This document shows positions 5,966 through 20,746 of a DNA stretch of 24,884 bases, one piece after another. Origin of the DNA: a virus; IMG/VR virus record IMGVR_UViG_3300016657_000126, positions 1 through 24,884 of that record. One strand, 5' to 3'. The position numbers and the translations under genes were made by a program. Position 1 is the stretch's first letter. Each line of letters begins with the position of its first letter. The notes below the pieces were generated by a model. That model saw only the letters and a program-made list of their open reading frames with translations. It did not search any database and was not told where the DNA came from.

Positions 5966-6166
5966 TCACGCAGCAAGTAGCGCGCGCAAAGCGCTTGCCG
6001 TAACTGGAAGCACCCAGGCCACGAGCAGCGCGATCGCCGCGAAGAGCGCGAGGTAGCAGAGAGCGCGGAAGCGGCGGCACCGCCAGAGAGCGCGGAACAC
6101 GCAACCCTGCCAGAGCAGCGCTTGTTTGCAGGGGGAAAGGACGGGGTCTTTGGTGCATCGACACAT
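5966..6166 (-). CDS. Small Cys/Arg-rich putative membrane protein (66 aa)
   Basis: ATG 1 nt after the upstream stop; C-terminal hydrophobic segment LCYLALFAAIALLVAWVLPV. Confidence 0.45.
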   Translation of the reverse strand: MCRCTKDPVLSPCKQALLWQGCVFRALWRCRRFRALCYLALFAAIALLVAWVLPVTASALRALLAA

Positions 6167-6167
6167 G

Positions 6168-6497
6168 TTAGATGGATTTTTCCCAGTCGGGTATTAGCAC
6201 TGTCTGGCTCGTCAGCGCGTGTGTGGTGTCAGAGCAGAATTCGATAAAACCTTCGCGAACGAAAAAGTGGCAGCGGTCCTTCACCAGCTCCGGTTTACCC
6301 GGCCCCTGCGGGAGCGAATAGGCGATGTCGATGGACGGCGAGAACGTGGGCTTGTCGAAGTCGCCGTTGAACGCCCACTGCGCGCCGTTGCTGTTGGGTC
6401 GTGATGTCCACACGCCGTGCGCGCACTTGCAGCCCGGACAGAAGAAAACGAAGTCCGGGCTCTCTGCGTCTTCGATGCGCAGGGCGTGCAGTTTCAT
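6168..6497 (-). CDS. DUF6527-like Cys/His protein (109 aa), probable metal binder
   Basis: FFCPGCKCAH...WAFNGDFDKPTFSPSI...CHFFVREGFIEFCSDTTHAL pattern. Start moved to ATG 6497 because of the ATGA overlap with the upstream stop. Confidence 0.8.
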   Translation of the reverse strand: MKLHALRIEDAESPDFVFFCPGCKCAHGVWTSRPNSNGAQWAFNGDFDKPTFSPSIDIAYSLPQGPGKPELVKDRCHFFVREGFIEFCSDTTHALTSQTVLIPDWEKSI

Positions 6498-6823
6498 TGG
6501 CGCCCCATTCGGTGCCACTGGTTCATGACGATGAACTTTTCCAGCGCGTCAGCGTTCAGGAAAATGGCGCCGGAAACCGTGGTGACGCCGTAGCGGCGCT
6601 CGAGGGGCGGGAGAAACTTGTCGCGATACTTTTCGAGCAGCGCCTCGTAGCGCATGAGCGCGCGCGTGGTGATCTCGGCCCCGCCCTGGGGAAGGAGGCG
6701 GATGATACCTCCGTTTTGCTCGTTCTGATCCCACGAAATCACCGACGGCATTGGCGTCGGCTCGGGGACAACGGTGCCGCACCCCGCGAGCGCGAGGGTG
6801 AGGACCAGAAACAGCGCTTTCAT
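6494..6823 (-). CDS. Lipoprotein, candidate o-spanin-like (109 aa)
   Basis: MKALFLVLTLALAG|C lipobox; Pro-rich stretch after the Cys (VVPEPTPMPS); ATGA-coupled to the upstream small membrane gene. Confidence 0.65.
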   Translation of the reverse strand: MKALFLVLTLALAGCGTVVPEPTPMPSVISWDQNEQNGGIIRLLPQGGAEITTRALMRYEALLEKYRDKFLPPLERRYGVTTVSGAIFLNADALEKFIVMNQWHRMGRQ

Positions 6824-7014
6824 TCGCTGGTGAGTTTGCGGATCTTCTCGAGGTCTTTGTCGGCGATGGCGTCGCGGGCCTCGTCCGCGATCTTGGCATC
6901 CACGCGGGCATCCGCGGAACGCTTCATCTCCGGCGTGTTGTTTGCCTCCTGCCGATTCTTGGCCAGTCCGAAGATATTGGCCAAGATCTGCAGGAGGGCG
7001 GTGAGCGCCTGCAT
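6820..7014 (-). CDS. Small membrane-anchored helical protein, candidate i-spanin-like (64 aa)
   Basis: N-terminal hydrophobic/amphipathic helix (MQALTALLQILANIFGL) then a charged helical tail; AGGAG-free but coupled to the lipoprotein gene. Confidence 0.55.
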   Translation of the reverse strand: MQALTALLQILANIFGLAKNRQEANNTPEMKRSADARVDAKIADEARDAIADKDLEKIRKLTSE

Positions 7015-7025
7015 GGCGAGGAGCC

Positions 7026-7862
7026 TCAGCGGAGCTTGAGGTCGTCGAAGGAGAGCTCGGCGAGCGGGTCGCCGCCGGCGCCGGTCAGCGTGCCAGACGC
7101 GCCAGCTTTCGCGCCCTCGGCGATGGCGATGAGCACCGCCTTGAAGGCGGGCTTTGCGTCGATCGCGTTCTGGACGTTGATCGCGTAGAACGATTGGTAG
7201 ACGCCGAGCGCGAGGGTGAAGGCGTTCGCGGCGAGCGGACCATACTCGGTCTTGGCGAGGGAGGCGCTGATGAGCTTGGTCAACTCGACCGGGTCGTAGG
7301 TGGAGTCGGCCGCGACGAGGATGACATCGGCGACCGCCAACACCGCCGGCGCCGCCTGGGGCTTGGCCAGAAGCGCGGCGTTGGTCGCGGTCGAAGTGGT
7401 CGCACGCACGACGGTCGCGATGCGTTGGATTTGCGCTTCCTGCGTGGGCGCCTTGGTGACGAGGTTGCAGCCGGAGGTCATGCTGATGACTGCGGCAGAG
7501 CCGCCGAGCACGCAGAAGAAGATGAGCATGCCGACCACGCCGCCGTTACCGCCGTCAGGCTTCTTCGCAGGAGTCTGGAGCTCCTGCTTGTAGTCTTCGG
7601 CGATCACCTTCGGGAGATTCTCGCCGTAGAGGAACGCGCGCCACATGCCGATGATACCGCCCTGCGTGCGGGCGCCGTTGTAGATGCGGCCGACGATCAT
7701 GAGCACGAGCGTGGCGGTGACGCCGTTCAACTGCCACTGGCTGATCGGCGTATTGAGCAGCGCGGAGGGATCGGTCACGGCGGCGGCTTCGGCGGCCATG
7801 GCGAGGGAAGCAAGAGCGAACCCCGCGAAGACAAACATCAGGAGACGGAACAAGGACTTCAT
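7026..7862 (-). CDS. Membrane protein with N-terminal signal peptide, holin-like segment and internal lipobox-like motif (278 aa)
   Basis: MKSLFRLLMFVFAGFALASLAMA|AE; hydrophobic VTATLVLMIVGR and GGIIGMWRAFLYG; second hydrophobic run ending MTSG|C; Ala-rich amphipathic C-terminal half. Confidence 0.7.
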   Translation of the reverse strand: MKSLFRLLMFVFAGFALASLAMAAEAAAVTDPSALLNTPISQWQLNGVTATLVLMIVGRIYNGARTQGGIIGMWRAFLYGENLPKVIAEDYKQELQTPAKKPDGGNGGVVGMLIFFCVLGGSAAVISMTSGCNLVTKAPTQEAQIQRIATVVRATTSTATNAALLAKPQAAPAVLAVADVILVAADSTYDPVELTKLISASLAKTEYGPLAANAFTLALGVYQSFYAINVQNAIDAKPAFKAVLIAIAEGAKAGASGTLTGAGGDPLAELSFDDLKLR

Positions 7863-7899
7863 GGTGACTTTGGATTAAGGTTGAACGGAACGACTCCGG

Positions 7900-7929
7900 A
7901 GTATCCGCCCGGGAACGACGTTCGGTCAA
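7900..7929 (-). promoter_or_regulatory. Candidate sigma70-type promoter for the membrane/lysis-like cluster
   Basis: TTGACC-18 nt-GATACT located just downstream of the terminator. Confidence 0.45.
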
Positions 7930-7945
7930 GGCAGCGACTAAACGC

Positions 7946-7974
7946 AAAAAAGCCGCGTGATTTTCTCACGCGGC
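7946..7974 (-). terminator. Intrinsic (Rho-independent) terminator
   Basis: GCCGCGTGA-gaaaa-TCACGCGGC perfect 9-bp stem followed by TTTTTT on the minus strand. Confidence 0.9.
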
Positions 7975-8002
7975 CCAACAACACACAGGAGCTGACAGAA
8001 AA

Positions 8003-8431
8003 TCAGTTTGAAGGCGGAACGTAGGGCGTGGTCAAGATCGTAACGGTGCCGTTCGGATTCACCGTGAACGCATTGGTCGGAAGCGCGACGTCGACGGGAA
8101 CACCGTCGGCGGTCTGCGCGGCGATAAGCGCGTCAGTGAGCGCGGCGTGGATGGCGAAGATCTTACCCGCTTTGGTGCCGAGCGCGTCGCACACCTGCTG
8201 CGGCGTGAGGCCTTCGGAGTTGTGCCAGACAAGATCAATGCCCTGCTTCTGCATGCGCGCGAGCTGGGAGTAGCCGGACTGGGCCAGCATCACAACGCGC
8301 TTGGAGGCGCGCTCCTGCTTGCCGGCGAGGGAGGTGTCGGTGGACGGCTGCAGAATGGATTCCTGCGCCTGGGCGGCGCTCGGCGCGAGGGCCAGCGCGA
8401 GGATCGAGCAAACGAAGAAGAGGAGTTTCAT
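8003..8431 (-). CDS. Exported hypothetical protein (142 aa from ATG 8431)
   Basis: Signal peptide MKLLFFVCSILALALAPSAAQA|QE; helical core VWHNSEGLTPQQVCDALGTKAGKIFAIH and C-terminal FTVNPNGTVT hairpin. Confidence 0.8.
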   Translation of the reverse strand: MKLLFFVCSILALALAPSAAQAQESILQPSTDTSLAGKQERASKRVVMLAQSGYSQLARMQKQGIDLVWHNSEGLTPQQVCDALGTKAGKIFAIHAALTDALIAAQTADGVPVDVALPTNAFTVNPNGTVTILTTPYVPPSN

Positions 8432-8441
8432 ACGAGAATCG

Positions 8442-8470
8442 ATTATCGAAGTGTGAGAGTTAAGAACCAA
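8442..8470 (-). promoter_or_regulatory. Candidate internal promoter
   Basis: TTGGTT-17 nt-GATAAT in an AT-rich gap, 10 nt before the ATG. Confidence 0.35.
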
Positions 8471-8477
8471 GCGTAAA

Positions 8478-9305
8478 TCACCAGTAGCCGTAGGTGGCTG
8501 TCCAGATGTCGGACGTCAGATCCGGGCGCGACACATACTCGAACGGGAGCGAGAAGCGACCGCGCGCGCCCCAGTCAGGGCCCCAGCTATTGAAGCCGAA
8601 GAATAGCTGCGCGCGCTCGTCGTAGCCGTCGATCATCATCGCGTGGCCGCCGATGGCGCGCTCGCCAGCCACCGGAACTGGGATGCGCCCAGAGGTCTGC
8701 ACACCCGGAAAATTGACGCTCTGGTAGAGCTGCACGCCGACGATGATCGGCAGCCGCTCGACCGCGATAGTCGTCATCATCACCGCCGGCGCCGTGGGCA
8801 GAGGAAGGATGCGCTGGTATTCTTTGATGCGCATCGTGCGCGCCCATTTCATCGAGTCTTCCGACGGTGCTGTCTTCGGATTGCGAGACTCGTGCGCGGT
8901 GGACGGCGCCGCACCGTCTTGCTGCATCGTCTTCATTAGATCGCGCAGGTAAGCGCCGCCGTCGGCGCCTTGCATGCCCGACTTCTCGCGCGCCTTGTAG
9001 TAGAGCCAAAACGGACTCGCCGTCCAACCCAAGGACGAGCCGAGCGCGCGACCGTAGATGTTCGCCAGGAATGCGGTGCCGGCGTGTCCGGTGCAGGACT
9101 GCGTGGTGCCTTGATCGAGCGCATCGCGCAAACCGTAGGTCAGGAGCGACACCGTCGGCGAGAAGCTCGAGATGCGCTCTCTGATGTAGTCGCGCGGATC
9201 GCTCGGGTCGGGTAGCGCGCCCAACCGCTCTTCCGCCAGCGGCGCCATGCCGACTGCTCGGCGCGCCAGAAATTTCAGACGCTCACTGAATGTTCGCTGC
9301 TGCAT
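8478..9305 (-). CDS. Papain-family (C1A) cysteine protease, bacterial xylellain-like type
   Basis: DQGTTQSCTGHA (oxyanion Gln, catalytic Cys), GGHAMMIDGY (His), NSWGPDWG (Asn), N-terminal LGALPDPSDPRDY, SPFWLYY...DGGAYLRD. No signal peptide. Confidence 0.93.
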   Translation of the reverse strand: MQQRTFSERLKFLARRAVGMAPLAEERLGALPDPSDPRDYIRERISSFSPTVSLLTYGLRDALDQGTTQSCTGHAGTAFLANIYGRALGSSLGWTASPFWLYYKAREKSGMQGADGGAYLRDLMKTMQQDGAAPSTAHESRNPKTAPSEDSMKWARTMRIKEYQRILPLPTAPAVMMTTIAVERLPIIVGVQLYQSVNFPGVQTSGRIPVPVAGERAIGGHAMMIDGYDERAQLFFGFNSWGPDWGARGRFSLPFEYVSRPDLTSDIWTATYGYW

Positions 9306-9546
9306 GTTGTTTTTTCCAGACGGCTACGGCTTCGGTGAGGATCGCCTGGCGCCGCTCGACCGGGATGACGGCGAGGATTTCATCGACCGTGGTGATGTGC
9401 GTAGGATACTTATCGGGCACAGGCTCTGTGGCGTCGAACCACAGAGCCTGGAAAACAGCCGTGACGAAGAAAGCGTCGTCCGGCGTGCGGGTGGTGGACT
9501 GACATCCGAGCAGCGTGAGGGTGAGCGCAGCGAGGAGAGGTTTCAT
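9283..9546 (-). CDS. Small lipoprotein (87 aa)
   Basis: MKPLLAALTLTLLG|C lipobox; TGATG overlap with the upstream stop. Confidence 0.75.
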   Translation of the reverse strand: MKPLLAALTLTLLGCQSTTRTPDDAFFVTAVFQALWFDATEPVPDKYPTHITTVDEILAVIPVERRQAILTEAVAVWKKQHAAANIQ

Positions 9547-11702
9547 CAGTAGGTATTGAACCCACTGAGATCAATCTCGTGCAAGGAGTATCCGCCCTTC
9601 GTCACCGTGCCGGTCATGCTCCAACCGACGTTCGCCGCGCCCGCCGTGTCCGTGTAGCCGGCGAGCGACTGCAGCAGCAGGGGATTGAAGCGCGCGCGCA
9701 GCGTGGCACCGCTCCACACGGACGCATGGTAGAGCTTGCCGTTGAAGTTCGCGCAGACGACCAGGTTTTCCGTGGAGTCTCCGAGCGCCATGCCGGCATT
9801 GAAGGTGTAGTCGGTGCCCAGCTGCGTCCACGAGCTCCCGTCCGTAGTCGTGCTGGTATAAAAACGAACGATGCCGGAGGACTGGGTCCTGGTGACGCGG
9901 ACCCAACGCTTCGTGCCATCCACGGCCCCGACAGGAAAACCTGTGGTCTTCGCGTTACCGGTCGCCATGTAGAACCCGAGGGCGCCGTCTGTCTCGAGGC
10001 GGAATCGGTAGGCGGTAGAGGCCGGCAGCTTCTGGACGAGTTCCACCGCGCTCGTGGGTGTCCAGTCGTTCGGCGCGATGCGGAGACGAATGTCGATGTC
10101 ACCGGTCACGCTGACGTTCGCATTGTCGGCGGTCGCCGCATATTGCGTCCCGTTCATGCTGACGAACGAGGCGTCGGTCGAAGCCTCAATGAGCGCGTTG
10201 ATCGCCGCCTTGTGGCCTGTCAACGAGGTGCCGGACCCGGCGCCGCCGAAGGTCCACACGTTCAGCAGAACGAGCTGATTGTTGATGATGAGGAACGCGG
10301 GATTTCCAGAGTCGCCGCCGATCTTCTCCTCGTAGAAGAGTTGCCGCTGGGTGTCCGCCGGCACCGTGAAATAGGCCATCGACCCATACATGCCGGCGCC
10401 GGCCGTGATCTGCGCCAGGTCAGTGACCAGCGCCTTCTCCTCTTGGTCGAGGCACAGCGCCGGCACGCGGTAGGTGTAGTTCAGAGACGGGAGCTTGTTC
10501 GGCCAGTTGTCGGGCAGGACCTTCGCGTAGGTGATCTCGGCGGGCACATCGCTGTCGAGCGTCGCAACCCGGTAGTCGGGATAGTAGTTCGTGTAGCCGC
10601 CAGCCGTGGTGATGGATGTGATGGTGCGGGTGTACAGCGTGTTGTCCTGCCCGACGAAGTGCATGACTGCGCCCGTGCCCATGGAAGCGTGCGCGCAGAC
10701 AATGAAGTGGCGCGGGGTTACCAGCGCTCCCGCCCAGAGATTATTCGTCTGGCTGTTGCCAGGGCTGATCGCCGTAAGGTCCAGTCCGTAGGCCCAGCAG
10801 TTGACGTTCCGCACATAGCTCTGCGAGCTCGGGTTGTACGTGCTGAATATACGCAGCGCGTCGACAGGCGCCTTGCCTGCCAGCCGCGAGTCGATCGTGG
10901 ACATGATATTTTGACGCAGGCTTCCGGCGGCGTAGCTGGTAACCGATACCGCCGGCGGCGGGGCGCCGGTTACGGAAGTTGTCACCGTGCGCTGATAGAC
11001 CAACCCGCTGGATGTGGTTAGGCGGAGCGTGGCGGTGCCGCTCCCCACGTAAGTCCAGCGGTAAGGATCCCCGTCCTTCGGAATGATGATCGCGTTGTTC
11101 GTCGACGCGCGGCTGACCGTACCGGGCTCGGAGTTCGAGTCGGCGGGGCGCCACTCCCAGATGTAATCGGAGACTGACGACGAGCCCGTCACGGTGACGA
11201 CCGTGCGGTCCTGCTCGGTGGTGGTGACGGAGGTGGCTGCGGTCGTCGGTCTCGCCACACTGTAGGGCTCGGATACCGTGAGCGTGAACCGCGCTCCCGG
11301 CACGGCGATAGGTCCGCCATCCCAGGTCTTGTGTGTGCCCGTCTGCGCTATCGGTCCTCCGTCCAGCGTCAGCGCGCCCTCGCCGGTGACTGTGGGTGCC
11401 GGCGCCGCGCCAGACAAAACCGTCCACGAGGTCGGCGCGTCGGGCGTGTTGCCCGTCTGTCCGCTTCGGTAGTAGGTTGTCACTCCGCCGGTGCTCGAGA
11501 TGTCCCAGCACGCCTGGACCGAGTTGTAGCGGACCTGATAGCCAGGTTTGGTGTAGAGCGGACGCCCATTCGCAGGACCGGCGTACGCGTACGAGCCGTT
11601 CACAGCAGCGGTTCCCGCGCCGCTGACTTTCACGGGTGAGAACGCCTGACCGCAGCACAGGGAACTCAGCAGACAGAAGACCAGCAGGAGGAGTGTGCGC
11701 AT
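9546..11702 (-). CDS. Exported multidomain trypsin-like (S1/PA clan) serine protease with C-terminal LamG/concanavalin-like domain (718 aa)
   Basis: Signal peptide MRTLLLLVFCLLSSLCCG|QA; GALVTPRHFIVCAH (His), PDYRVATLD (Asp), GGDSGNP (Ser); C-terminal GDIDIRLRIAPNDW...RWVRVTR...VRFYTS...FNGKLY beta-sandwich. Confidence 0.85.
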   Translation of the reverse strand: MRTLLLLVFCLLSSLCCGQAFSPVKVSGAGTAAVNGSYAYAGPANGRPLYTKPGYQVRYNSVQACWDISSTGGVTTYYRSGQTGNTPDAPTSWTVLSGAAPAPTVTGEGALTLDGGPIAQTGTHKTWDGGPIAVPGARFTLTVSEPYSVARPTTAATSVTTTEQDRTVVTVTGSSSVSDYIWEWRPADSNSEPGTVSRASTNNAIIIPKDGDPYRWTYVGSGTATLRLTTSSGLVYQRTVTTSVTGAPPPAVSVTSYAAGSLRQNIMSTIDSRLAGKAPVDALRIFSTYNPSSQSYVRNVNCWAYGLDLTAISPGNSQTNNLWAGALVTPRHFIVCAHASMGTGAVMHFVGQDNTLYTRTITSITTAGGYTNYYPDYRVATLDSDVPAEITYAKVLPDNWPNKLPSLNYTYRVPALCLDQEEKALVTDLAQITAGAGMYGSMAYFTVPADTQRQLFYEEKIGGDSGNPAFLIINNQLVLLNVWTFGGAGSGTSLTGHKAAINALIEASTDASFVSMNGTQYAATADNANVSVTGDIDIRLRIAPNDWTPTSAVELVQKLPASTAYRFRLETDGALGFYMATGNAKTTGFPVGAVDGTKRWVRVTRTQSSGIVRFYTSTTTDGSSWTQLGTDYTFNAGMALGDSTENLVVCANFNGKLYHASVWSGATLRARFNPLLLQSLAGYTDTAGAANVGWSMTGTVTKGGYSLHEIDLSGFNTY

Positions 11703-11706
11703 TGGG

Positions 11707-12216
11707 TCAGAGTTTGGAGGCGGCGATGAAGGCGGCGTCGATCTGCGCGCTGCTCAGGGACAGGACCGCGCCAAGCTGCGTGACCAGCGCGTGGTCGCGT
11801 CGGAATGTCTGGCTCTCGGTCCACCAGTTGAGCGCGAGACGCTTTTGTTTCGCGTCGGGGATGGCGTTGAGCGCCGTCTCCACCTCGTCGATGAGGTCGA
11901 CCTGGATGAGCCACTCCTTCAACTGTCGTCGCGAAACTTCGGAAGGAACAGTTGGTATCGGTTGCGAGGGTGTAGATAGGTAAGTCGCAATGACATCAGC
12001 TGTTAGAGTTTGCTCTGGGTCTGCTGCAGGGATGCCGATCACGCGACCATCTGGCGACTGGACCCGGTAGCCGTTGGCGACATCGACGGAGAGGACGGTG
12101 TAGGTGGTACCAGCGAGATCGACGGTGTAGGTCGCAGGCGGGGAGGGCAGGTCTTCAGCAGCTCTCGCGATTACGCAAAGACTAAGAGCCGCGATATGGT
12201 AGATTTTGTTTTTCAT
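11707..12216 (-). CDS. Tail-fibre-assembly/chaperone-like protein with N-terminal signal peptide (169 aa)
   Basis: C-terminal VPSEVSRRQLKEWL...WWTESQTFRRDHALVTQLGAVLSLSSAQIDAAFIAASKL matches the helical domain commonly encoded next to phage fibre genes; N-terminus MKNKIYHIAALSLCVIARA|AE. Confidence 0.65.
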   Translation of the reverse strand: MKNKIYHIAALSLCVIARAAEDLPSPPATYTVDLAGTTYTVLSVDVANGYRVQSPDGRVIGIPAADPEQTLTADVIATYLSTPSQPIPTVPSEVSRRQLKEWLIQVDLIDEVETALNAIPDAKQKRLALNWWTESQTFRRDHALVTQLGAVLSLSSAQIDAAFIAASKL

Positions 12217-12229
12217 GGAGATCGTGAGC

Positions 12230-14983
12230 TTAATTATTGCCGACGCGTTGGCCGCTGATCGTGTGCAGTAGCTGGTCAGTCCCGTTCGAGTTCACCCAGA
12301 GGTCTGCGGTGGCGTTGAAGCGCGTGGTGGGGGTGACGTCGGTCAGTCCTACGGGGACGGAGAGCGCCGAGCCGTACTGGCTGCCGCCCGAGACGTTCCC
12401 TAGCGAGACCGTGCGGGTGTTAGCGCCCATGTTCGCAATGACCCAGGACTCTATGCGGTTCCGATTGAGATCAGGGAAAACCGATCCGCCGAGGAGCTGT
12501 TGGTTGCCGCTGGTAGAGCTCGAGGCTACGATGCGCCAGCGTCGATCCGGGGTGATACCGACGACGCCGACCAGGCGCCCCGGGTTATTACCCAGCGTGG
12601 TCCAGTCATCCGCGACAGGTATCGCCTGTGGGCGGAGTAGAGAGAGGGCACCGAGCCACTCGACGCGGACGTTTTTGATGTAGAGGTTTTTTCCAACCGC
12701 CAGCGCGCCGGTGCAGGTAAACATGTCGTTGCTCGCCGTAAAGACCTGCGAAGAAAGAAGCACCTGATTGGTCTGCCAGCTACCCTCAACGATAGAGATC
12801 GTGTTGGTCTGCGCCGCGCCGACACCGCCGATGAAGATACCGGTCAATCCGCTCGCTGAGTCCGCGTAGTAGTCGAACACAACCCGAACCTGACGCCAGA
12901 GGTTGCTTGTCGCCGCACGGTTGATTTGAACCGTTCCCGTCGTGCCTCGGGAAACCTGTAATACGTCGTTCACTCCGGCGATGCCGTCGACGTTGCCGGT
13001 CAAGGTCGCCTGACCTCCGGTGTTGTCACTGAATCCGTCGAGTCCGGCAGAGAAGTCGGAGGTGTAGACACTGCGGTGACCGCCGAGGACGACCCACGCC
13101 GGAGGCACACCAGTCGTGCGCCACGCCTCGGACTCGGCGTTGGTGAGGTGGGTGTTGAGCCACTGACCATGCGGGAGTGTGCCCTGGGGCCAGGCGTAAC
13201 CGAGCAGGTGGGTGCCGGCCGCCAACGTAGAGGCAAGCCACGCCGGCGGCGTGCCTTGGGTGGTGTCGACCGAACCGAAGTTGGCCGTGACATCGACACC
13301 GTCGATGCGGACGACGGGGAACACCGTCCCGGCAGTGAAGCGCACCTCCAGCCAGATCCGCTGGCCGCTGTAGCGGGACCGGAAATTCGCCCAATCGCGC
13401 CAACGCCCGTCGACGGTGGCCGTAGCACCGTTGGTCCGCAGGCGGCAGGTGCCGTCGCTGCGAATCATCATGCTGATCGAGTTTGCCTCGCCCTCCGCGG
13501 GACTGGAGGAGACCGACACGAAGAACATGTACGTGTTGGCGCTCGAAGCGGTGGTCGGCACGTTGACCCACCCGCACCACGACGCGGTCGCCGCGCCGGC
13601 CAGATTGCCGCGGGCGCCGGGGTATTGAGCGATGCCGCGGTTCGCCGTGTAGCCATCCGAAAAGAAGTAGGGCGCCGCGTCCTTGGTGAGCGCCTCCTGC
13701 TCCAGCATCGCCTCGGTCTGCATGGCGTCGGTACCTGTCACGCCGGTCATGCCGACGAGGTAGGCGTCGTTGCCACCGATCAGGGTGGCGTCGAGGACGT
13801 TCGCGGTGCCGGGCTGGACCTGGGGTAGCGATAGGGCCCCGACCACCCAAACCTGTATGGACTGGACCTCGATGCCCTCGCCCACGTTGCCGATCCCCAT
13901 GTTGAAGGAGAGGTCACGGTTGCCTCCCATGTTGGGGATCTCGCCCTCGTAATCGGCGAAAGAGTTGGTGAGCGCGTGGCCGGAGTTGGTGGTGCGACAA
14001 GCCCAGACTTGGAGGGTGGTAGCCGCGCCGACCCAGCGGGCGCGAATTTTATATCGCACCTTCCCCTGGAGTAGGAGTTGAGAAATGGCTGCGTTGCGAT
14101 TGGTGCCCTGGAGGAACAGATTCGAGCCGCTGGCGTTGGCAGCGTAGCCCGCCTTGCGGAGCAGACGCACGCCGCCGGTGATGGCGAGGGCGTCGACGTT
14201 GGCGCCCGCCTCCCAGTTGGTGAACGTGTCCGGAGTCGCATCGTCGACGGTGCCGGTAAAGGCCGCAAACGAAGTGTCGGCGGCGATCTGGACCTGCGAA
14301 CCACCGTCGCTCACCCACTTCGGCGGACGACCGGTCAGACGCCACGACTCGGACTCAGCATCGGTGAGATGCGAGTTGATCCACTGGCCGAGGGGAAGCG
14401 TGCCCTGGGGCCACGAGAAGCCCGTGAGGTGAAACGACGAGCTGAGATTGGCGTCGAGCCAGTTAGGCGGTGTCCCGCTCGGAGTCCCGGTCGTAGCTGC
14501 AAGCGGCACTCCGTTCGCACGGATAGTAGGCGAAGACACCCCGCTCACGTACCGGACGTCCAGCCACACCCGCTGCCCAGAAAACTCGGTGCGGAAATTA
14601 TTGTAACGAACCTCGCGATAATCGCTACCTAATGCCCCCGTCTCGTAAATGAGCAGGTTGCCACTGGTATTGATCTGAGCGTGAGTCACGCGCCCAGTCG
14701 CAAAGACAGAGCTGGCGGAAGGGGTGATGGCGTAGATGACCACCCCTGAAGACGGATTGCTCGTCGGCACCTCGACCCAGCCGACCCACGACGCAGTCGC
14801 CGCACCGGCCAGATTGCCGCGCGCGCCGGGCTGCTGGACGATGGCGCGGTTCGTCGTCGCCCCGTCGCTGAAAACGTAGGGAGAGGACTGACGAGTTCCT
14901 ACGTTAAACGGGAACGACTGAGGACTGTACGCACCGTACAAATGTACGGCGACAAGGATAAGGAGTGTTAATATTTTTTTCAT
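12230..14983 (-). CDS. Exported fibre/receptor-binding-like protein with tandemly duplicated LamG-like plus carbohydrate-binding-like module (917 aa)
   Basis: Signal peptide MKKILTLLILVAVHLYG|A; two copies of PY.FSDG...NR.I.Q.PGARGNLAGAATASW.GWV.VPT...SGQR.WL.VR...WPQGTLP.GQW.N.HLT.AESE.WR.TG.PP.WV..GG. Confidence 0.75.
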   Translation of the reverse strand: MKKILTLLILVAVHLYGAYSPQSFPFNVGTRQSSPYVFSDGATTNRAIVQQPGARGNLAGAATASWVGWVEVPTSNPSSGVVIYAITPSASSVFATGRVTHAQINTSGNLLIYETGALGSDYREVRYNNFRTEFSGQRVWLDVRYVSGVSSPTIRANGVPLAATTGTPSGTPPNWLDANLSSSFHLTGFSWPQGTLPLGQWINSHLTDAESESWRLTGRPPKWVSDGGSQVQIAADTSFAAFTGTVDDATPDTFTNWEAGANVDALAITGGVRLLRKAGYAANASGSNLFLQGTNRNAAISQLLLQGKVRYKIRARWVGAATTLQVWACRTTNSGHALTNSFADYEGEIPNMGGNRDLSFNMGIGNVGEGIEVQSIQVWVVGALSLPQVQPGTANVLDATLIGGNDAYLVGMTGVTGTDAMQTEAMLEQEALTKDAAPYFFSDGYTANRGIAQYPGARGNLAGAATASWCGWVNVPTTASSANTYMFFVSVSSSPAEGEANSISMMIRSDGTCRLRTNGATATVDGRWRDWANFRSRYSGQRIWLEVRFTAGTVFPVVRIDGVDVTANFGSVDTTQGTPPAWLASTLAAGTHLLGYAWPQGTLPHGQWLNTHLTNAESEAWRTTGVPPAWVVLGGHRSVYTSDFSAGLDGFSDNTGGQATLTGNVDGIAGVNDVLQVSRGTTGTVQINRAATSNLWRQVRVVFDYYADSASGLTGIFIGGVGAAQTNTISIVEGSWQTNQVLLSSQVFTASNDMFTCTGALAVGKNLYIKNVRVEWLGALSLLRPQAIPVADDWTTLGNNPGRLVGVVGITPDRRWRIVASSSTSGNQQLLGGSVFPDLNRNRIESWVIANMGANTRTVSLGNVSGGSQYGSALSVPVGLTDVTPTTRFNATADLWVNSNGTDQLLHTISGQRVGNN

Positions 14984-15014
14984 ATGCGAAAACTTTATTT
15001 CCCAGAGATCTTAT

Positions 15015-18000
15015 TTAGTAGATGCCCCATTCGGTACCGTCAGAAATGAGCGTGATCGATTGGTACTGTCCGAGAGTCGTAGAAGCAGCTCCGTCAATGT
15101 TACCACCTCCCTGCACGGTCACCGTTCCCGTGTTCTTGTTTTTGATCTGGTACTCTCGCCCGGTGTTGGACGAGGCTGTGGGTAGGGTTACCGTGAAGGC
15201 TGACGCACTATTGCAGACTACGACATGGTAGGTGGCATCGAGCGTGAAATTGCCGGTGAGTATGTTCACCTTCTTAGCGCGCCCGAACATCGTCTGGAGG
15301 TCGCCAGCAGCATTTATCTGCGCATATGTAGTCACGCCACCCGGAGATGACCATATATGACGCCGATTGGCGTCAGCGTGCCAGCGAGAGAATTCCACAC
15401 CAGAAGTGTCAGTCAACGCGACCGACGCGTAGTTTCCTTCGCGGAAAATTTGGATGGGACCGCCGCCGTCAGTGCTGAGGCGCCTGTTCGCCGCATCGAT
15501 ATTCACGAACTGCGTCGAGCTGTTCGCGCGAACAGTGGCGCCACCATTAATCGCGCCGCCCACACCAAGACCTCCGGTGACGACCAGCGCACCGGTGCCG
15601 GTGGTCGTGGATGCGGTGCTGGCGGTGACCGTGGTCACGCCAGTGCTGGCCACGGTGACGGCATCGGAGGCCGAGTTGTTCACGCGCAGGCTCACACCGA
15701 ACCCGGCGTTGGCTTTCAGCACGAGGGAGTTCGAGGGCGAGAACACTTCGCCAGCAGCATTTCCGAGCATGAGATTGGTGCCGCCCACATTGACCGCTCC
15801 GCCCGTATATACGGCACCAGCCACCCCCACGCCTCCGCCGACCGTAAGCGCGCCTGTGGTCGTGCTGGAGGAGGAGGTCGTGTCCGGGATGTTCACTTGC
15901 GACGTACCGGCGGGGACACGCAGCACGATGTTGGTGTCGCGGTTGACCAACGTGACGTCATTGGTCGAACCGTAACCCTGCACGACCGCGCCGTTCGTGG
16001 AACTCAGACCGACATTCGCGCCGTTCGCTACCAGGGCGGCAAAAGGACTGGCGGTCGAGACATTGAATTTACTTTCGGTGGAGACATTCCCGCCGACGTT
16101 GACCGCTCCAGACACACCGACGCCCCCGGTGACAACCAACGCGCCGGAAGTCTTGCTGGTGGACGCGTTGCTCGCGGAGAACACCATCGGCGGCACCCAG
16201 GTGGCGGTGCCGGGAGTGTTGCCGTTGCGGGTGAAGGTCACGACCGAGGCCGCGGCGCTGTACGCGTCGTTGACGAGCTGTAGGCGCAGCTGTTCGGCGT
16301 TGAGATACCACCGCCAGATCTTGTTGTCGGTGGTGCCGTCGATGTCCTTCAGGACAAATTGAGGAATGCTTGAGGCAGACCAGACCCCACCCACTTCACC
16401 AGTGCCGTCGGCGGCAGTCGCTTTGATCGTGCCGCCGCTGGTCGTGCCGGTGAGCGTGGGCGAGGCGAGCGTTTTGTTGGAGAGCGTCTGCGTCTGGTCC
16501 GTGCTCACGACCACTTTGGTCGCGCCGGAGACGCTGTAGTTGATCGCTCCGCCGGTATACCAGACCGCGCCATCGGTCGCGCTGGAGGTGGATGCGAGCA
16601 CCGGGGCGGTCAGCGTCTTGTTGGAGAGTGTCTGGCTCAGGCTGAGATCCACGAGCGTGCGTTCGCCGGCGCCGTAGAAACGAATCGTGTCGGAGTTATA
16701 CCAGATGCGTCCGGCCGTCGTCTGCGGGGTGCTGTTGAGCTGGAGGGCGCCGAAGGAAGCCGTGCCGCCGGCGACCACCGCGCCGCCCACGCCCACGCCG
16801 CCGGTGACGACCAGCGCGCCGGTGCTAGACGAGTTGGCGGCGGTGGACATCGGAATGGTGACCGCAGAGCCGGTGAGCGTCATCGCGTCGGTCAGCGCGG
16901 TGGTGCTGCCGGCATTGACCTGAATCGCGGCCGTGCTGCCCGAGGCGCCGGCGCTGTTGCCCCACTGGAGGTCGGTGCCGATGCGCGCGGTGAACGCAGC
17001 GCCAGGAACGAAGGTGCCTGCGTCGGTGCCGGTGCCGGTGATCTCGAAGCTGCCGATGGTCGTGGCGCCGGCGGGCCAGGTGCCCGTCTGACGTCGGGCG
17101 ACCGTCACGCGGCCGGAGTTTCCGGCCGCTGGCATGACGACAACGGAGCCCAGCTTGTCGCCGGTAGAGTTGGCGATGGTCGTGCTCGGACCGAACCACG
17201 CGACGCCGCCGCTGTTGGTGCCAGTGCCGGGAAACTGGACCTGCGTGGTGTTGGCCAGCACCTGCATGGCCGCGGTACCCGCGCGATTGAGGAAGCTGAC
17301 GTCGGCCGTCGTACCGAAGCCCTGCACAACACCGCCGGCAGTGGTGGAGGCGTTCACGCGCACGCCGGTGGCGGTTAGCGTGCTGCTCGAGACGTTGCTG
17401 TTCGATACAAACTGCCCGGCGGTGGAGACACTGCCGGTGGCGTTGATCGCACCACCCACGCCCACGCCGCCGGTGACGACGACTGCCCCTGAGGATGCGG
17501 TGGTCGAGGCCGTGCTGCCGGGAAAGGTGACGGTGCCTGGCGTGGTGCCGGTGCGCCCGACCGTCATCCAGTTGTTGGATGAGGAGAAGGCGTCATTCGC
17601 CAGGCGGAACTGCAGAACGCTGCCGGAGACGATGGCGTCCCAGGTCTTGTTGTCGGTGGACGCGTCCGTCTCGTGCCACAGGAATGAGGGGGTCGTGGCC
17701 TCCGATTGGATGCCACCCAAGCGCCCGGAGGTGGAGCTGGAAGTGACGCGAAATGTGTTCTCTGAGCCCAGAACACCGGACGCTAAGCGATAGAGCGCGG
17801 TGTCCGAGCCAACCCACAGACCTTGCCACGGCTGCCCAGTCTGGTTGTACGGGTTAACGACGACCTTGTTCTGATTTATGTTCGACGTGCTGAGGGTGAG
17901 ATCAGAGTAGCCGGCGTGAAGCGCGATGTTGTCGCCGATCGTGAGGGTCGAGCCGTTATCCATCTGCTGCAGGCTGATGTAGTAGCGCGCCTGCGCCGTG

Positions 18001-19454
18001 ATCATGTAGTCGGCGACCATATTGATGGTGGCGCCGTCCGAGCTGGTCGCGTCCTGCTCCAGACTGATAAACGCGCCATCCGGGCCGTTGGACATGTCCG
18101 ACAACGCCGGCACCGCCACACGGGCCTCCTGCGTCACCGTGTTGTAGCTCGAGCTGTAGCCGAACGGAGCCACCTGCACGCCGCCGAAGGTCGTGCCATC
18201 GCCCACCCAGAGGCGCTTTTTGTCCGTGGTCCACCAGGCCTCTCCGTTGAGGGGCACGCCCACCAGGCGCTCGGCGTCGGTACCGCGCCGGAACTGAAGC
18301 GACAGGTTGGTCTTGTCGATCAGGTCGTTGACGTTGCCCGACGCATTGGTGCGTGCCAGCTTGCTGGCTCCTCCGGAGGTGGACGCGGATGTCGCGGTGC
18401 CGCCCACGGCACCGCCGTCGATGGTGATGCCTCCGGTGCCTTGAATCAGCAGAGGTCCTCCGGTCACCAGTCCGGCGTCGGTGTCCGTGAAATAAAGCGA
18501 GCAGTAGTTACCATCATCCAAAGTCAGCGCTATCGTGTTGTCTTGGAAAATCAGCGCGCCGGGCCCGCTACCTGTGGCCAGGTAGCTCTGCGCGTTGAAA
18601 TACGCATCGGCGTTAGAGTAGATCGAGACGTTGGCGTCGGCATGAACGTCGATCGCGCCGTTAAGCGTGATGTAGCTGGCGTTCGCGGCGTCATGGCGCA
18701 TCTCCATTTGCGCAGGGGCCAGGCTCAGGGTGGCGGCACCTGAACGGATCGACATCGAGGTATCGGCGTTCACGTCCAGCGCACCCTCCGCATTGATAAA
18801 CGCCGCGGCGCCGGCGACCGACATCGCAGCCTGCCCGGTTCCGCTGACCAATCCGGCAGATCCTCCACTCAGGCTTTGAACGGTCGAGTCCGCCCCACCG
18901 CCGGAGGCTTTGTTGAACACCAGGAAGTCGCCTTGGGATACGCCGGCCTCGTCCAGTCCGCTGAAGCTCAGTTTGCCATTGGACGCCGACACGCGCCAAC
19001 GCCGTTCGCCGCTGATGGAGGCGTTGTCCGTGATGTCGAAGCGCGGATTGTTTCCGGATAGCGTCATCTGTGTCGTGAACGCCGGGCTCGCCAACGGAGC
19101 CTTGAGGGCGAGCGAGGCGTTGGTCGAGGCGATGAAGCTGGCGATGTTCTGCGTGACGCCGTCCAAGTAGCTCAGCTCGGTGGGCGTGATGGTCGCGCCA
19201 TTCGCGCTGATGGTGCCGGTGAAGGTCACGGAGCCGGCGAGAGTCGAAGCGCCGGACGTAGCGAGGCCTCCGGCAAGGGTCAGCGTGGAGCCCGCCTCGA
19301 AGGTGACGGCGCGGCCGGCGGGGACTTTGAAATCCTCGGTCAGTCTGTCGCCGGTCGTGGTCTTTGTGATCGCCCGCGGCGCGGTGCCGATGGTGGTGGT
19401 TTGCGCCGTGGCGGTGCACGCCAGGGCCAGCAGCAGGAGGAGCAGTTTCTTCAT
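15015..19454 (-). CDS. Long tail-fibre-like repeat protein with N-terminal signal peptide (1479 aa from ATG 19454)
   Basis: MKKLLLLLLALACTATA|QT; Mtd-N/hyaluronidase-like motif QFRRGT...GEAWWTTDKKRLWVGDG; five GA(L/V)xVxGGxGVxGA repeats; two QTLSNKTL repeats; C-terminal TVTLPTA...IKN...IDG...SITLISDGTEW domain. The first 33 codons of the track ORF overlap the upstream gene. Confidence 0.85.
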   Translation of the reverse strand: MKKLLLLLLALACTATAQTTTIGTAPRAITKTTTGDRLTEDFKVPAGRAVTFEAGSTLTLAGGLATSGASTLAGSVTFTGTISANGATITPTELSYLDGVTQNIASFIASTNASLALKAPLASPAFTTQMTLSGNNPRFDITDNASISGERRWRVSASNGKLSFSGLDEAGVSQGDFLVFNKASGGGADSTVQSLSGGSAGLVSGTGQAAMSVAGAAAFINAEGALDVNADTSMSIRSGAATLSLAPAQMEMRHDAANASYITLNGAIDVHADANVSIYSNADAYFNAQSYLATGSGPGALIFQDNTIALTLDDGNYCSLYFTDTDAGLVTGGPLLIQGTGGITIDGGAVGGTATSASTSGGASKLARTNASGNVNDLIDKTNLSLQFRRGTDAERLVGVPLNGEAWWTTDKKRLWVGDGTTFGGVQVAPFGYSSSYNTVTQEARVAVPALSDMSNGPDGAFISLEQDATSSDGATINMVADYMITAQARYYISLQQMDNGSTLTIGDNIALHAGYSDLTLSTSNINQNKVVVNPYNQTGQPWQGLWVGSDTALYRLASGVLGSENTFRVTSSSTSGRLGGIQSEATTPSFLWHETDASTDNKTWDAIVSGSVLQFRLANDAFSSSNNWMTVGRTGTTPGTVTFPGSTASTTASSGAVVVTGGVGVGGAINATGSVSTAGQFVSNSNVSSSTLTATGVRVNASTTAGGVVQGFGTTADVSFLNRAGTAAMQVLANTTQVQFPGTGTNSGGVAWFGPSTTIANSTGDKLGSVVVMPAAGNSGRVTVARRQTGTWPAGATTIGSFEITGTGTDAGTFVPGAAFTARIGTDLQWGNSAGASGSTAAIQVNAGSTTALTDAMTLTGSAVTIPMSTAANSSSTGALVVTGGVGVGGAVVAGGTASFGALQLNSTPQTTAGRIWYNSDTIRFYGAGERTLVDLSLSQTLSNKTLTAPVLASTSSATDGAVWYTGGAINYSVSGATKVVVSTDQTQTLSNKTLASPTLTGTTSGGTIKATAADGTGEVGGVWSASSIPQFVLKDIDGTTDNKIWRWYLNAEQLRLQLVNDAYSAAASVVTFTRNGNTPGTATWVPPMVFSASNASTSKTSGALVVTGGVGVSGAVNVGGNVSTESKFNVSTASPFAALVANGANVGLSSTNGAVVQGYGSTNDVTLVNRDTNIVLRVPAGTSQVNIPDTTSSSSTTTGALTVGGGVGVAGAVYTGGAVNVGGTNLMLGNAAGEVFSPSNSLVLKANAGFGVSLRVNNSASDAVTVASTGVTTVTASTASTTTGTGALVVTGGLGVGGAINGGATVRANSSTQFVNIDAANRRLSTDGGGPIQIFREGNYASVALTDTSGVEFSRWHADANRRHIWSSPGGVTTYAQINAAGDLQTMFGRAKKVNILTGNFTLDATYHVVVCNSASAFTVTLPTASSNTGREYQIKNKNTGTVTVQGGGNIDGAASTTLGQYQSITLISDGTEWGIY

Positions 19455-19455
19455 T

Positions 19456-20013
19456 TTAGAAAGAGAAGATGAGAACGAGGACGCGGGGGTTGTTATCCTG
19501 ATGGAAGTCGTTGGGGAACACCAGCCCGGCGTCGACGTCCTCGACCGACTCACCGTTCCAGGGTTGGATCTGCCAAAACGAGGCGCGACCGCCGATGGTC
19601 GTGAGCATGATCTGGTTCATGCGCCCCTCGCCGACGGTCGGCTGCGCGGAGAGCGCGGTGTCGATGTCGCTACCCTTATACGCGGTGAGCAGCGTCTTGT
19701 TCTGCACCGCGTTGTTCAGGCCAGTCGCCCGGGCCGCCTCGAACTCGGCGCGCCGCACGTAGAGCCGGTCGGCGTCAGCCTGATTCAGGAACTGCGCGGG
19801 CGGCGCCACGGGCGGGACTGCGGATGTCTGCGCGCCGGTGCGGATGATGATCTGCTTCGAGTCGAGCAACTGCTGCCCCTTGACGTCAAAGCGTTCGGCC
19901 TCGGTCGTGACCGAGCTTTTGGCGGGAATGGCGATGTTGCGCCAAGCGCCGCGTTGCAGCACCTGGAACTGGACAGCGGCGTTGGTGATGTTAGCGATGG
20001 TGACGACGGACAT
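19456..20013 (-). CDS. Hypothetical protein, first gene of the fibre operon, no signal peptide (185 aa)
   Basis: Stop is 1 nt from the fibre ATG; contains FLNQADADRLYVRR, similar to fibre neck motifs, and a Pro/Ala linker between two small domains. Confidence 0.8.
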   Translation of the reverse strand: MSVVTIANITNAAVQFQVLQRGAWRNIAIPAKSSVTTEAERFDVKGQQLLDSKQIIIRTGAQTSAVPPVAPPAQFLNQADADRLYVRRAEFEAARATGLNNAVQNKTLLTAYKGSDIDTALSAQPTVGEGRMNQIMLTTIGGRASFWQIQPWNGESVEDVDAGLVFPNDFHQDNNPRVLVLIFSF

Positions 20014-20019
20014 TCCCCC

Positions 20020-20047
20020 ACAGTAAATCGCGTGTGAGATTGGGCAA
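20020..20047 (-). promoter_or_regulatory. Candidate leaderless promoter of the fibre operon
   Basis: TTGCCC-16 nt-TACTGT-6 nt-ATG, just downstream of a terminator. Confidence 0.4.
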
Positions 20048-20073
20048 CGCTGGCGGAGACAGGCCTGATAGCT

Positions 20074-20108
20074 AAAAAAAAAGCCGCCACACCCGAAGGT
20101 GCAGCGGC
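20074..20108 (-). terminator. Intrinsic terminator with cUUCGg tetraloop
   Basis: GCCGCTGCACC-TTCG-GGTGTGGCGGC (11 bp with two G-U pairs) followed by nine T on the minus strand. Confidence 0.93.
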
Positions 20109-20173
20109 TCCCGGCTGGCGGGCGTCAGCGAGGTTTACACCGCGCCGCCGTCCAGCCCACCAGCCAAGGTGGG

Positions 20174-20746
20174 TCAGCGTTGAGCGATGATGCGCCCGAC
20201 GCGCTCCGCAATCTGCGGCAACAGGTGCTGCACGACCGACAGCGGCGCGATCAGGAACGTCTGCTCCTCGGACTGGTCGAAGCGCCGCTGCATCACGTAG
20301 ACGTGCGTCGGGCCGCGGTCGAAGCCCGCCTTTCCGGTGCAGATACGCACGCTCGCCAGATCCTTGTCGACGTGCGTGTGCGGCGTGGTGACGGCGCGCA
20401 CGAGCATCGAACTGTCCTCGAGCACGTCGAACGCCAGGCGAGGGTGCCCTTGGTGTGCGTTTGCCAGCGTCTTGAATGTGTCCACCAGCGGCCGGAGGTA
20501 GCTGGCGTCGCGCTCGAGCCGTGCCGCCTCGCTGTCGGCACGCAAGGTCTCCAGCATGTCGTAGTGGCGCATGGCGCCGGCGATGTGGTCCATGAACTGG
20601 ACGGCGGGGTCCTTGCGAGCCTCTTCGGCGGCCTTGGTCACAGCGGCCTTCGCGGCGTCGGCATCAGCTTGCGCCAACTCCTTGGCGGACGGCTTGGATT
20701 TCTTGACGGTCTTGCGCGGGGCGCGGGGGGATTTGGAAGCGGGCAT
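20174..20746 (-). CDS. Hypothetical protein with basic N-terminal tail (190 aa)
   Basis: MPASKSPRAPRKTVKKSKPSAK then an Ala-rich helix; fills the space between an AT-rich gap and the terminator. Confidence 0.75.
   Translation of the reverse strand: MPASKSPRAPRKTVKKSKPSAKELAQADADAAKAAVTKAAEEARKDPAVQFMDHIAGAMRHYDMLETLRADSEAARLERDASYLRPLVDTFKTLANAHQGHPRLAFDVLEDSSMLVRAVTTPHTHVDKDLASVRICTGKAGFDRGPTHVYVMQRRFDQSEEQTFLIAPLSVVQHLLPQIAERVGRIIAQR

Follow-up and report, generated by a model that had tools for sequence, protein, structure and literature searches.

Signal-bearing fibre genes paired with a signal-less, predicted tailspike-like adaptor gene in an uncultured phage genome

The gene block described here lies in the IMG/VR virus record IMGVR_UViG_3300016657_000126 (196,897 bp, CheckV completeness 100%), the first 24.9 kb of which (24,884 nucleotides) form the stretch analysed, hereafter the window. 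The block occupies positions 20013–8003 and starts with a gene for a small protein without a leader (the adaptor), followed by a long fibre- or spike-like gene whose product begins with a predicted signal peptide and by further genes, most of them also signal-bearing (Table 1). Genes are named by their start coordinate on the minus strand of the window, and all ten genes that an earlier note, made from the sequence alone, had described between 19454 and 6494 were found on that strand with the starts it gave. That note had left room for cellular DNA; the complete record and a gene for the terminase large subunit at 144.5–146.6 kb of the genome (phrog_675, E 1e-17) place the locus in a virus. 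A Logan assembly, probably made from the same sample, has positions 6000–20200 on a single contig; the best-matching run is a freshwater metagenome and is probably the source. The homologues that carry names are from Opitutaceae, Candidatus Didemnitutus and Rariglobus bins, and the host is therefore likely to belong to the Verrucomicrobiota.

Table 1. Features of the fibre block and the adjoining lysis-like unit (window coordinates; the slash marks a predicted cleavage site; aa, amino acids; G+S+T, glycine, serine and threonine; pLDDT, per-residue model confidence)
Feature	Coordinates	Strand	Basis or remark
Intrinsic terminator upstream of the block	20079..20112	-	15-pair stem and T-run
20013, signal-less adaptor, 185 aa, predicted cytoplasmic	19456..20013	-	No leader; homologues
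Adaptor C-terminal domain of about 70 aa, predicted D3'-like tailspike module	19468..19680	-	AlphaFold2 (AF2) pLDDT 89
19454, fibre/spike with Sec signal, 1479 aa, G+S+T 37%	15015..19454	-	Sequence, rule
Predicted 17-aa signal peptide of 19454, cleavage ATA/Q	19404..19454	-	Rule and homologues
Conserved mature N-terminal 'anchor' domain, aa 18–68, variable bodies behind	19251..19403	-	Profile search
14983, 917 aa, signal-bearing, duplicated all-beta lectin-like or carbohydrate-binding module (CBM)-like unit; candidate receptor-binding part	12230..14983	-	Homologues match both halves
12216, 169 aa, fibre-assembly-chaperone-like, weaker signal	11707..12216	-	phrog_6034, E 3e-21 (family of unknown function)
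11702, 718 aa, signal-bearing, predicted trypsin-like serine protease with C-terminal LamG-like domain	9546..11702	-	His near 338, Asp376, GDSG at 463
9546, 87-aa predicted lipoprotein	9283..9546	-	Lipobox LLG/C; no homologue found
9305, papain-like C1 cysteine peptidase without signal	8478..9305	-	PF00112 E 0.003, phrog_16701 E 1e-11, catalytic motifs
8431, 142 aa, signal-bearing (AQA/Q), probable fibre accessory	8003..8431	-	L134 homologue
Intrinsic terminator closing the fibre block	7950..7976	-	11-pair stem and T-run
7862, 278-aa membrane protein, signal and second hydrophobic segment, lysis-cassette-like	7026..7862	-	Function inferred from position only
7014, 64 aa, no cleavable signal, spanin-like position	6820..7014	-	Similar gene before the 6823 homologue in L163
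6823, 109-aa lipoprotein, o-spanin-like position	6494..6823	-	Lipobox LAG/C

The two terminators are the strongest in the region, in agreement with the earlier description of 20013–8003 as a block flanked by two clear terminators, and the one that closes it leaves 7862, 7014 and 6823 outside. An 8-mer, TCTCACAC, with four copies on the minus strand of the genome, was found on that strand at 20039 and 8458, just upstream of 20013 and 8431, and a 7-mer, GATTTAC, was found likewise at 20029 and 8479. Together, TCTCACAC and GATTTAC are a candidate for a shared promoter or regulatory element. The sole sigma70-like promoter match in the region (7929–7900, minus strand) lies between the closing terminator and 7862 and is no better than chance.

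Signal peptides were called using a rule that demands a basic n-region, an 8-residue h-region (hydrophobicity cut-off 2.2) and small residues at −3 and −1. With corrected starts, the 11 genes of the 20013–6494 stretch gave seven positives (19454, 14983, 12216, 11702, 8431, 7862 and 6823), the leader of 12216 being the least typical of the set. The lipobox of 9546 is clear, and its hydrophobicity of 2.17 falls just under the rule. With it, the signal-like leaders reported earlier for eight of the ten genes from 19454 to 6494 are recovered, as are both lipoboxes (9546 and 6823) and a predicted Gln at +1 in 19454, 11702 and 8431. No leader was found in 9305, 7014 or 20013. Elsewhere in the genome only 5 of 218 genes were positive, even with alternative starts allowed (Fisher p = 4e-8). 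The sole convincing signal protein among these, with 352 aa and a signal followed by Gln, is encoded at 45991–47049 (minus strand; L005:5991–7049) among small early-type genes and has no Pfam match.

In 19454, an internal Mtd_N domain (PF18454, aa 387–422, E 4e-6, above the cut-off) was detected. There was no match in the PDB sequence search and none to S74, and no catalytic beta-helix was shown. The rule labels 19454 a lipoprotein owing to Cys13, but cleavage at ATA/Q by signal peptidase I (SPI) appears more likely because homologues drop Cys13 yet retain the Gln. A profile made from the first 47 mature positions of 19454 alone was run against 1.84 billion (1.84e9) proteins and returned 62 near-N-terminal matches, of which 57 are positive by the rule, two more were recognized by eye and three look like truncated gene calls. 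The n-region, h-region and −3/−1 features of Sec/SPI signals were thus seen, by our own rule, in the window genes and in this set. The leaders are only 24% identical pairwise, compared with 60% for the 15 residues from the Gln onward, yet they retain the −1/−3 pattern: each of the 38 homologues scored has A or G at −1, and not one D or E occurs in 570 positions (the 15 before the Gln). Divergence of this kind, with the pattern kept and acidic residues absent, indicates that signal function in these leaders is under selection. The expectation that homologues in related phages would keep their signals therefore holds for the 19454 family, and it does so across unrelated phages.

Gln stands at the predicted cut in 50 of the 62 anchor homologues. 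The earlier note had seen a Gln in this place as compatible with pyroglutamate capping. The Q-rule couples Gln at +1 with a host that has a periplasmic glutaminyl cyclase; the paper describing it gives it as specific to Bacteroidetes and leaves Verrucomicrobia unmentioned (PMC5837995), and the host here, probably one of the Verrucomicrobiota, is outside its coverage. Disulfide formation was considered as a reason for export and rejected, as the 1462-aa mature fibre has only two Cys.

In its architecture the anchor family resembles phage fibres, with a conserved N-terminal attachment domain and variable C-terminal bodies, and in the loci of relatives it is placed among the structural genes, beside those for tail or neck. 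The departure is that fibres are made in the cytoplasm and lack a signal peptide, and 19454 has one. The leaders could in principle be chance or gene-calling artefacts, or the locus cellular DNA with ordinary adhesins, given that the rule is home-made and that some homologues are on contigs of bacterial metagenome-assembled genomes (MAGs). This is very improbable, and the data largely refute it: the enrichment within the genome is strong, 59 of the 62 homologues have leaders, the record is a complete virus with a terminase, and the MAG contigs show a prophage tail gene order. When 185,579 species genomes were searched using a single strict pattern for the anchor, the 16 matches were all internal, beta-helix-like chance hits without an adaptor, which is weak evidence of absence.

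The adaptor behaves differently. A signal is absent from 87 of its 89 homologues. Conservation is seen over the last 70 residues; the N-terminal part varies by phage type. In a reverse test, loci were collected using the adaptor domain alone and the next gene was then inspected, giving 36 viral loci. In 30 of these (16 distinct) the domain is protein-terminal, and the next gene was signal-bearing in every case (27 by the rule, three by eye) and carried the anchor domain in 24. The next gene is also signal-bearing in L156 and L158, where the adaptor domain has a C-terminal extension. It has no signal in three of the 36 loci, in which the domain is internal, and likewise in L160. Among long proteins with an internal domain, those of L161, L162, L164 and L128 lack a next-gene signal, L158 being the exception. 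In L160 (L160:7001–7600) the adaptor has a 33-aa extension, and the gene behind it has no signal and matches the anchor only weakly (E 2e-4), possibly a cytoplasmic form of the adaptor–anchor pair. No internal adaptor domain was found to be followed immediately by the anchor domain, so no unsplit ancestor of the exact pair was seen. One signal-less protein of 734 aa (P0261) has six tandem adaptor domains and could be a multi-socket branching adaptor; P0267 and P0301 have two each.

The pair recurs in a fibre position. Four small phages (L134, L143, L152 and L153) have just one long gene rich in G, S and T between tape-measure-like and lysis-like genes, and it is the signal gene. A small HK97-type phage (L017) repeats the gene order, with adaptor, Gln-fibre, a second signal protein, a small gene and the signal-bearing protease, and the prophage-like tail regions L009, L011 and L013 repeat part of it. 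A single 69-kb contig (L107/L109) includes two near-parallel fibre–lysis regions with different fibre bodies, representing either a strain mixture or a duplication.

The C-terminal domain of the adaptor is likely, though not certain, to be a D3' module, as judged from its predicted structure. D3' is recognized as an open-face four-stranded sheet around a short helix, of about 60 aa; its place is between the neck and the beta-helix, and tailspikes are the only proteins in which it has been seen (PMC7506556). When the model was compared with 48,161 chains, its 14 best fold matches were all tailspikes or tailspike-like, the best being residues 265–332 of CBA120 TSP2 (Z 6.2, root-mean-square deviation 3.2, 61 residues aligned); unrelated rows reached Z 3.1 at most. 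A Foldseek search of BFVD gave nothing significant for the domain. No beta-helix body follows in the same chain, the domain being terminal in 20013 and in the 30 loci. Binding between adaptor and anchor is weakly predicted. A complex of three anchor and three adaptor domains scored 0.34 (runs 0.00, 0.34 and 0.76; run agreement at least 0%, partner pLDDT at least 66), with 0.00 for the best control, and only the partner interface, not the homotrimer, enters this score. In the calibration, 58 of 80 solved pairs and 2 of 110 mismatched ones attained the mark; scores of 0.60 or lower account for seven of the 80 solved pairs and for both mismatches.

Little in the block was named by the Pfam, PHROGs, NCBIfam and PDB sequence searches, and atlas searches returned only unnamed viral clusters, or nothing. 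When 11702 and 14983 were each used as single sequences to scan viral contigs, nothing was found, and alignments were needed. The model of 14983 (pLDDT 70) matches CBM and LamG/ConA-type sandwiches at low template modelling (TM) scores, and a unit of the 14983 type is fused behind an anchor domain in P0138. The fold matches to Vip3, Cry and BoNT binding domains, at TM of about 0.2, reflect shared beta-sandwiches only, and 14983 is not called a toxin. Homologues of 12216 come after fibre genes in L107 and L140, and 12216 may be a fibre-assembly chaperone. A His-Asp-Ser triad can be placed from sequence motifs in 11702, with GDSG retained in 60 of 60 homologues; there was no Pfam or PDB protease match. 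Its homologues are located in phage tail modules. The product of 8431 is 27% identical (pairwise E 5e-8) to that of a signal-bearing gene directly behind the L134 fibre.

The earlier note had treated all eight signal genes as one fibre module. This stands for 20013–8003; 7862, 7014 and 6823 form a separate unit behind the terminator and, from their position, look like lysis genes. Lipoprotein signals are ordinary in lysis cassettes. The unit resembles spanins of the Rz/Rz1 type in lipoprotein signal, size and position, although 6823 and its neighbours differ in having no family match (Pfam, PHROGs). A homologue of 6823 in L163 (34% identical, E 2e-10) follows fibre and holin-like genes. If the unit does encode spanins, these would be ordinary and outside the novelty of the locus. 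Within 7862 (7529–7026, minus strand), Met112 opens a second hydrophobic stretch that ends in a lipobox-like TSG/C (Cys132), possibly a fused or nested lipoprotein.

Further downstream in the window, a gene at 6168–6497 (minus strand) encodes a Cys-rich 109-aa DUF6527 (PF20137) protein; prophage L097 has a homologue, 51% identical, among its tail genes. An RNA polymerase beta-prime-like fragment at 1316–4762 (minus strand) has two intein-like insertions, and its L129 homologue aligns only at residues 5–195, 344–476 and 846–1140. In the presumed tail region of the genome, two opposite-strand genes, one with 31% G+S+T, occupy 157850–159978 (plus strand; L002:17850–19978) and are possibly a signal-less fibre or an inverted cassette.

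Taken as a whole, the block may be a swappable host-recognition module of phages, probably of Verrucomicrobiota, in which the tailspike comes in two halves. The proximal half, 20013, would remain in the cytoplasm, join the particle through its variable N-terminal part and end in the D3'-like neck module. The distal half, 19454, would be exported by Sec, cut by SPI and folded in the periplasm, along with the accessories 14983, 12216, 11702 and 8431. Once lysis brings the two compartments together, the anchor domain, with its N-terminus freed, would dock on the adaptor. The likely gain would be that sticky glycan-binding parts and an active protease are kept from the cytoplasm; for concealment from cytoplasmic anti-phage sensors, which the earlier note had raised, the analysis gave no evidence. 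Export, presence in the virion and timing are what we infer, and we rate a tailspike split in this way, with its exported body docking at lysis, at even chances. The earlier proposal of periplasmic maturation with docking at lysis is thereby supported in part, and it gains a possible mechanism in the adaptor–anchor gene pair.

Signals that are real and conserved would also be seen if the exported proteins acted on or around the infected cell, as adhesins, masks, decoys, agents of superinfection exclusion or capsule-clearing enzymes, and were not virion parts. There is precedent in huge phages for the display of phage proteins on the host envelope (bioRxiv 10.64898/2026.10.24.761521), the MAT fibres of Bdellovibrio are signal-bearing, phage-spike-like cell adhesins (PMC10769870), and 11702 is a predicted protease. 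However, inspection of the sequences of 19454, 14983 and 11702 revealed no membrane anchor, sorting signal or barrel, the genes sit in fibre slots, and the small phages have no other evident fibre. The strict pairing with a signal-less, tailspike-like adaptor would also go unaccounted for, and we regard action at the cell surface as unlikely.

Conservation of the signal was mostly not found for 14983 and 11702, contrary to expectation: about 5 of 20 homologues of the former have one and 18 of 120 of the latter. The same slot is occupied by genes without signals in L008 and with signals in L013, and two protease homologues, P0008 and P0009, share their N-terminal sequence, which in P0009 only is preceded by a 22-aa leader. 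These signal-less versions of the same domains in the same slots (L008 versus L013, L098 and L160), together with a quick protease tree that requires at least four gains or losses of the signal, would suit a leader that is a temporary inner-membrane tether or reflects leaky export, with the virion fibre folding on the cytoplasmic face and attached before lysis. That would agree with textbook cytoplasmic assembly. Against it, the leaders have canonical c-regions for SPI, the active site of which faces the periplasm, and there is no Met at the mature start from which an internal form could begin; we find a tether about as unlikely as action at the cell surface. The patchy occurrence of 14983, 11702 and 8431 among relatives, and the fit of protease and chaperone-like genes to a maturation role, could also mean that 19454 alone docks and that these three are periplasmic maturation or lysis helpers. 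Those homologues of 14983 and 11702 that lack a signal lie in tail modules and begin with fibre-type or immunoglobulin (Ig)-type N-termini, which points to virion parts and makes so limited a virion role improbable.

Several points weigh against the split tailspike with lysis-time docking. The signal calls come from a home-made rule and not a trained predictor. The Z score of 6.2 is below 8, and the shared arrangement may be merely a common one; the complex score falls in a range where a pass is wrong in most cases, except for complexes that were likely beforehand. The L160 pair is signal-less, and in L009/L011 the anchor follows a different adaptor end. Neither adaptor nor anchor was found in cultured phages. 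In this genome, no library identified tail genes, possible signal-less fibres are present elsewhere (157850–159208 and 161853–163904), and a distant 162-kb jumbo relative is without the fibre module. For sheath, baseplate and capsid candidates at 151–197 kb there was no match in any library searched, and no tail type is asserted. The closest parallel in a cultured phage, phi10:1, involves proteins of a different family from 19454.

In Cellulophaga phage phi10:1 (NC_021802), gp091–gp094 have a signal followed by Gln, are annotated as structural from tandem mass spectrometry (MS/MS) and lie behind the signal-less gp090. By that annotation, such signal-bearing proteins do occur in a phage proteome, and we found no paper remarking on the phi10:1 signals. 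The gp090–gp095 region is like the present block in having a small signal-less gene and then signal-plus-Gln genes in the fibre slot, but the host is one of the Bacteroidota and there is no sequence match to adaptor or anchor. The CBA120 TSP2 and TSP4 and Acinetobacter phage tailspikes (PMC7506556; PDB 6w4q, 5w6h, 6c72) share the predicted D3' fold (Z 6.2, 5.3 and 5.8, respectively) and the combination of a conserved attachment part with a variable receptor-binding body. In those, D3' and body form one cytoplasmic chain, whereas here the adaptor chain ends after the D3'-like domain and the body is a separate signal-bearing gene. The Bdellovibrio bacteriovorus MAT fibres are phage-spike-like, with a signal peptide and then a conserved beta-rich domain, but they are cellular surface adhesins, some with an S74 chaperone; 19454 is on a viral record, has no S74 match and has a predicted cytoplasmic adaptor partner. 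Sec signals and Gln at +1 also occur in products of Porphyromonas prophages (PMC10367356); these are from capsid, spanin and unknown genes, read as host-modifying, and no tail parts are mentioned in the passages found. No published report of exported tail fibres was found, most subscription papers being outside the search. New here are the two-way gene pairing, the D3'-like fold predicted at the split point and the weakly predicted binding of the two domains.

Virion parts of tailed phages are normally assembled in the cytoplasm, and a route of fibre maturation outside it would be new for these phages if shown. Many tailed phages may have a two-compartment receptor-binding apparatus, with a D3'-like socket on the particle and exported spikes that plug in after lysis, leaving particles unarmed while in the cell; we put this wider claim at somewhat below even. 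The two domains of the pair are defined and short (about 70 and 50 residues), so that in vitro tests do not require the uncultured phage, and among cultured phages phi10:1 is available as a test case. Proteins are often excluded from the virion, and contigs assigned to cells, on the strength of a signal peptide. If the split tailspike is real, such exclusion fails for a widespread group comprising dozens of unrelated uncultured phages, the host-range genes of these phages are currently missed, and an assembly step exists after lysis.

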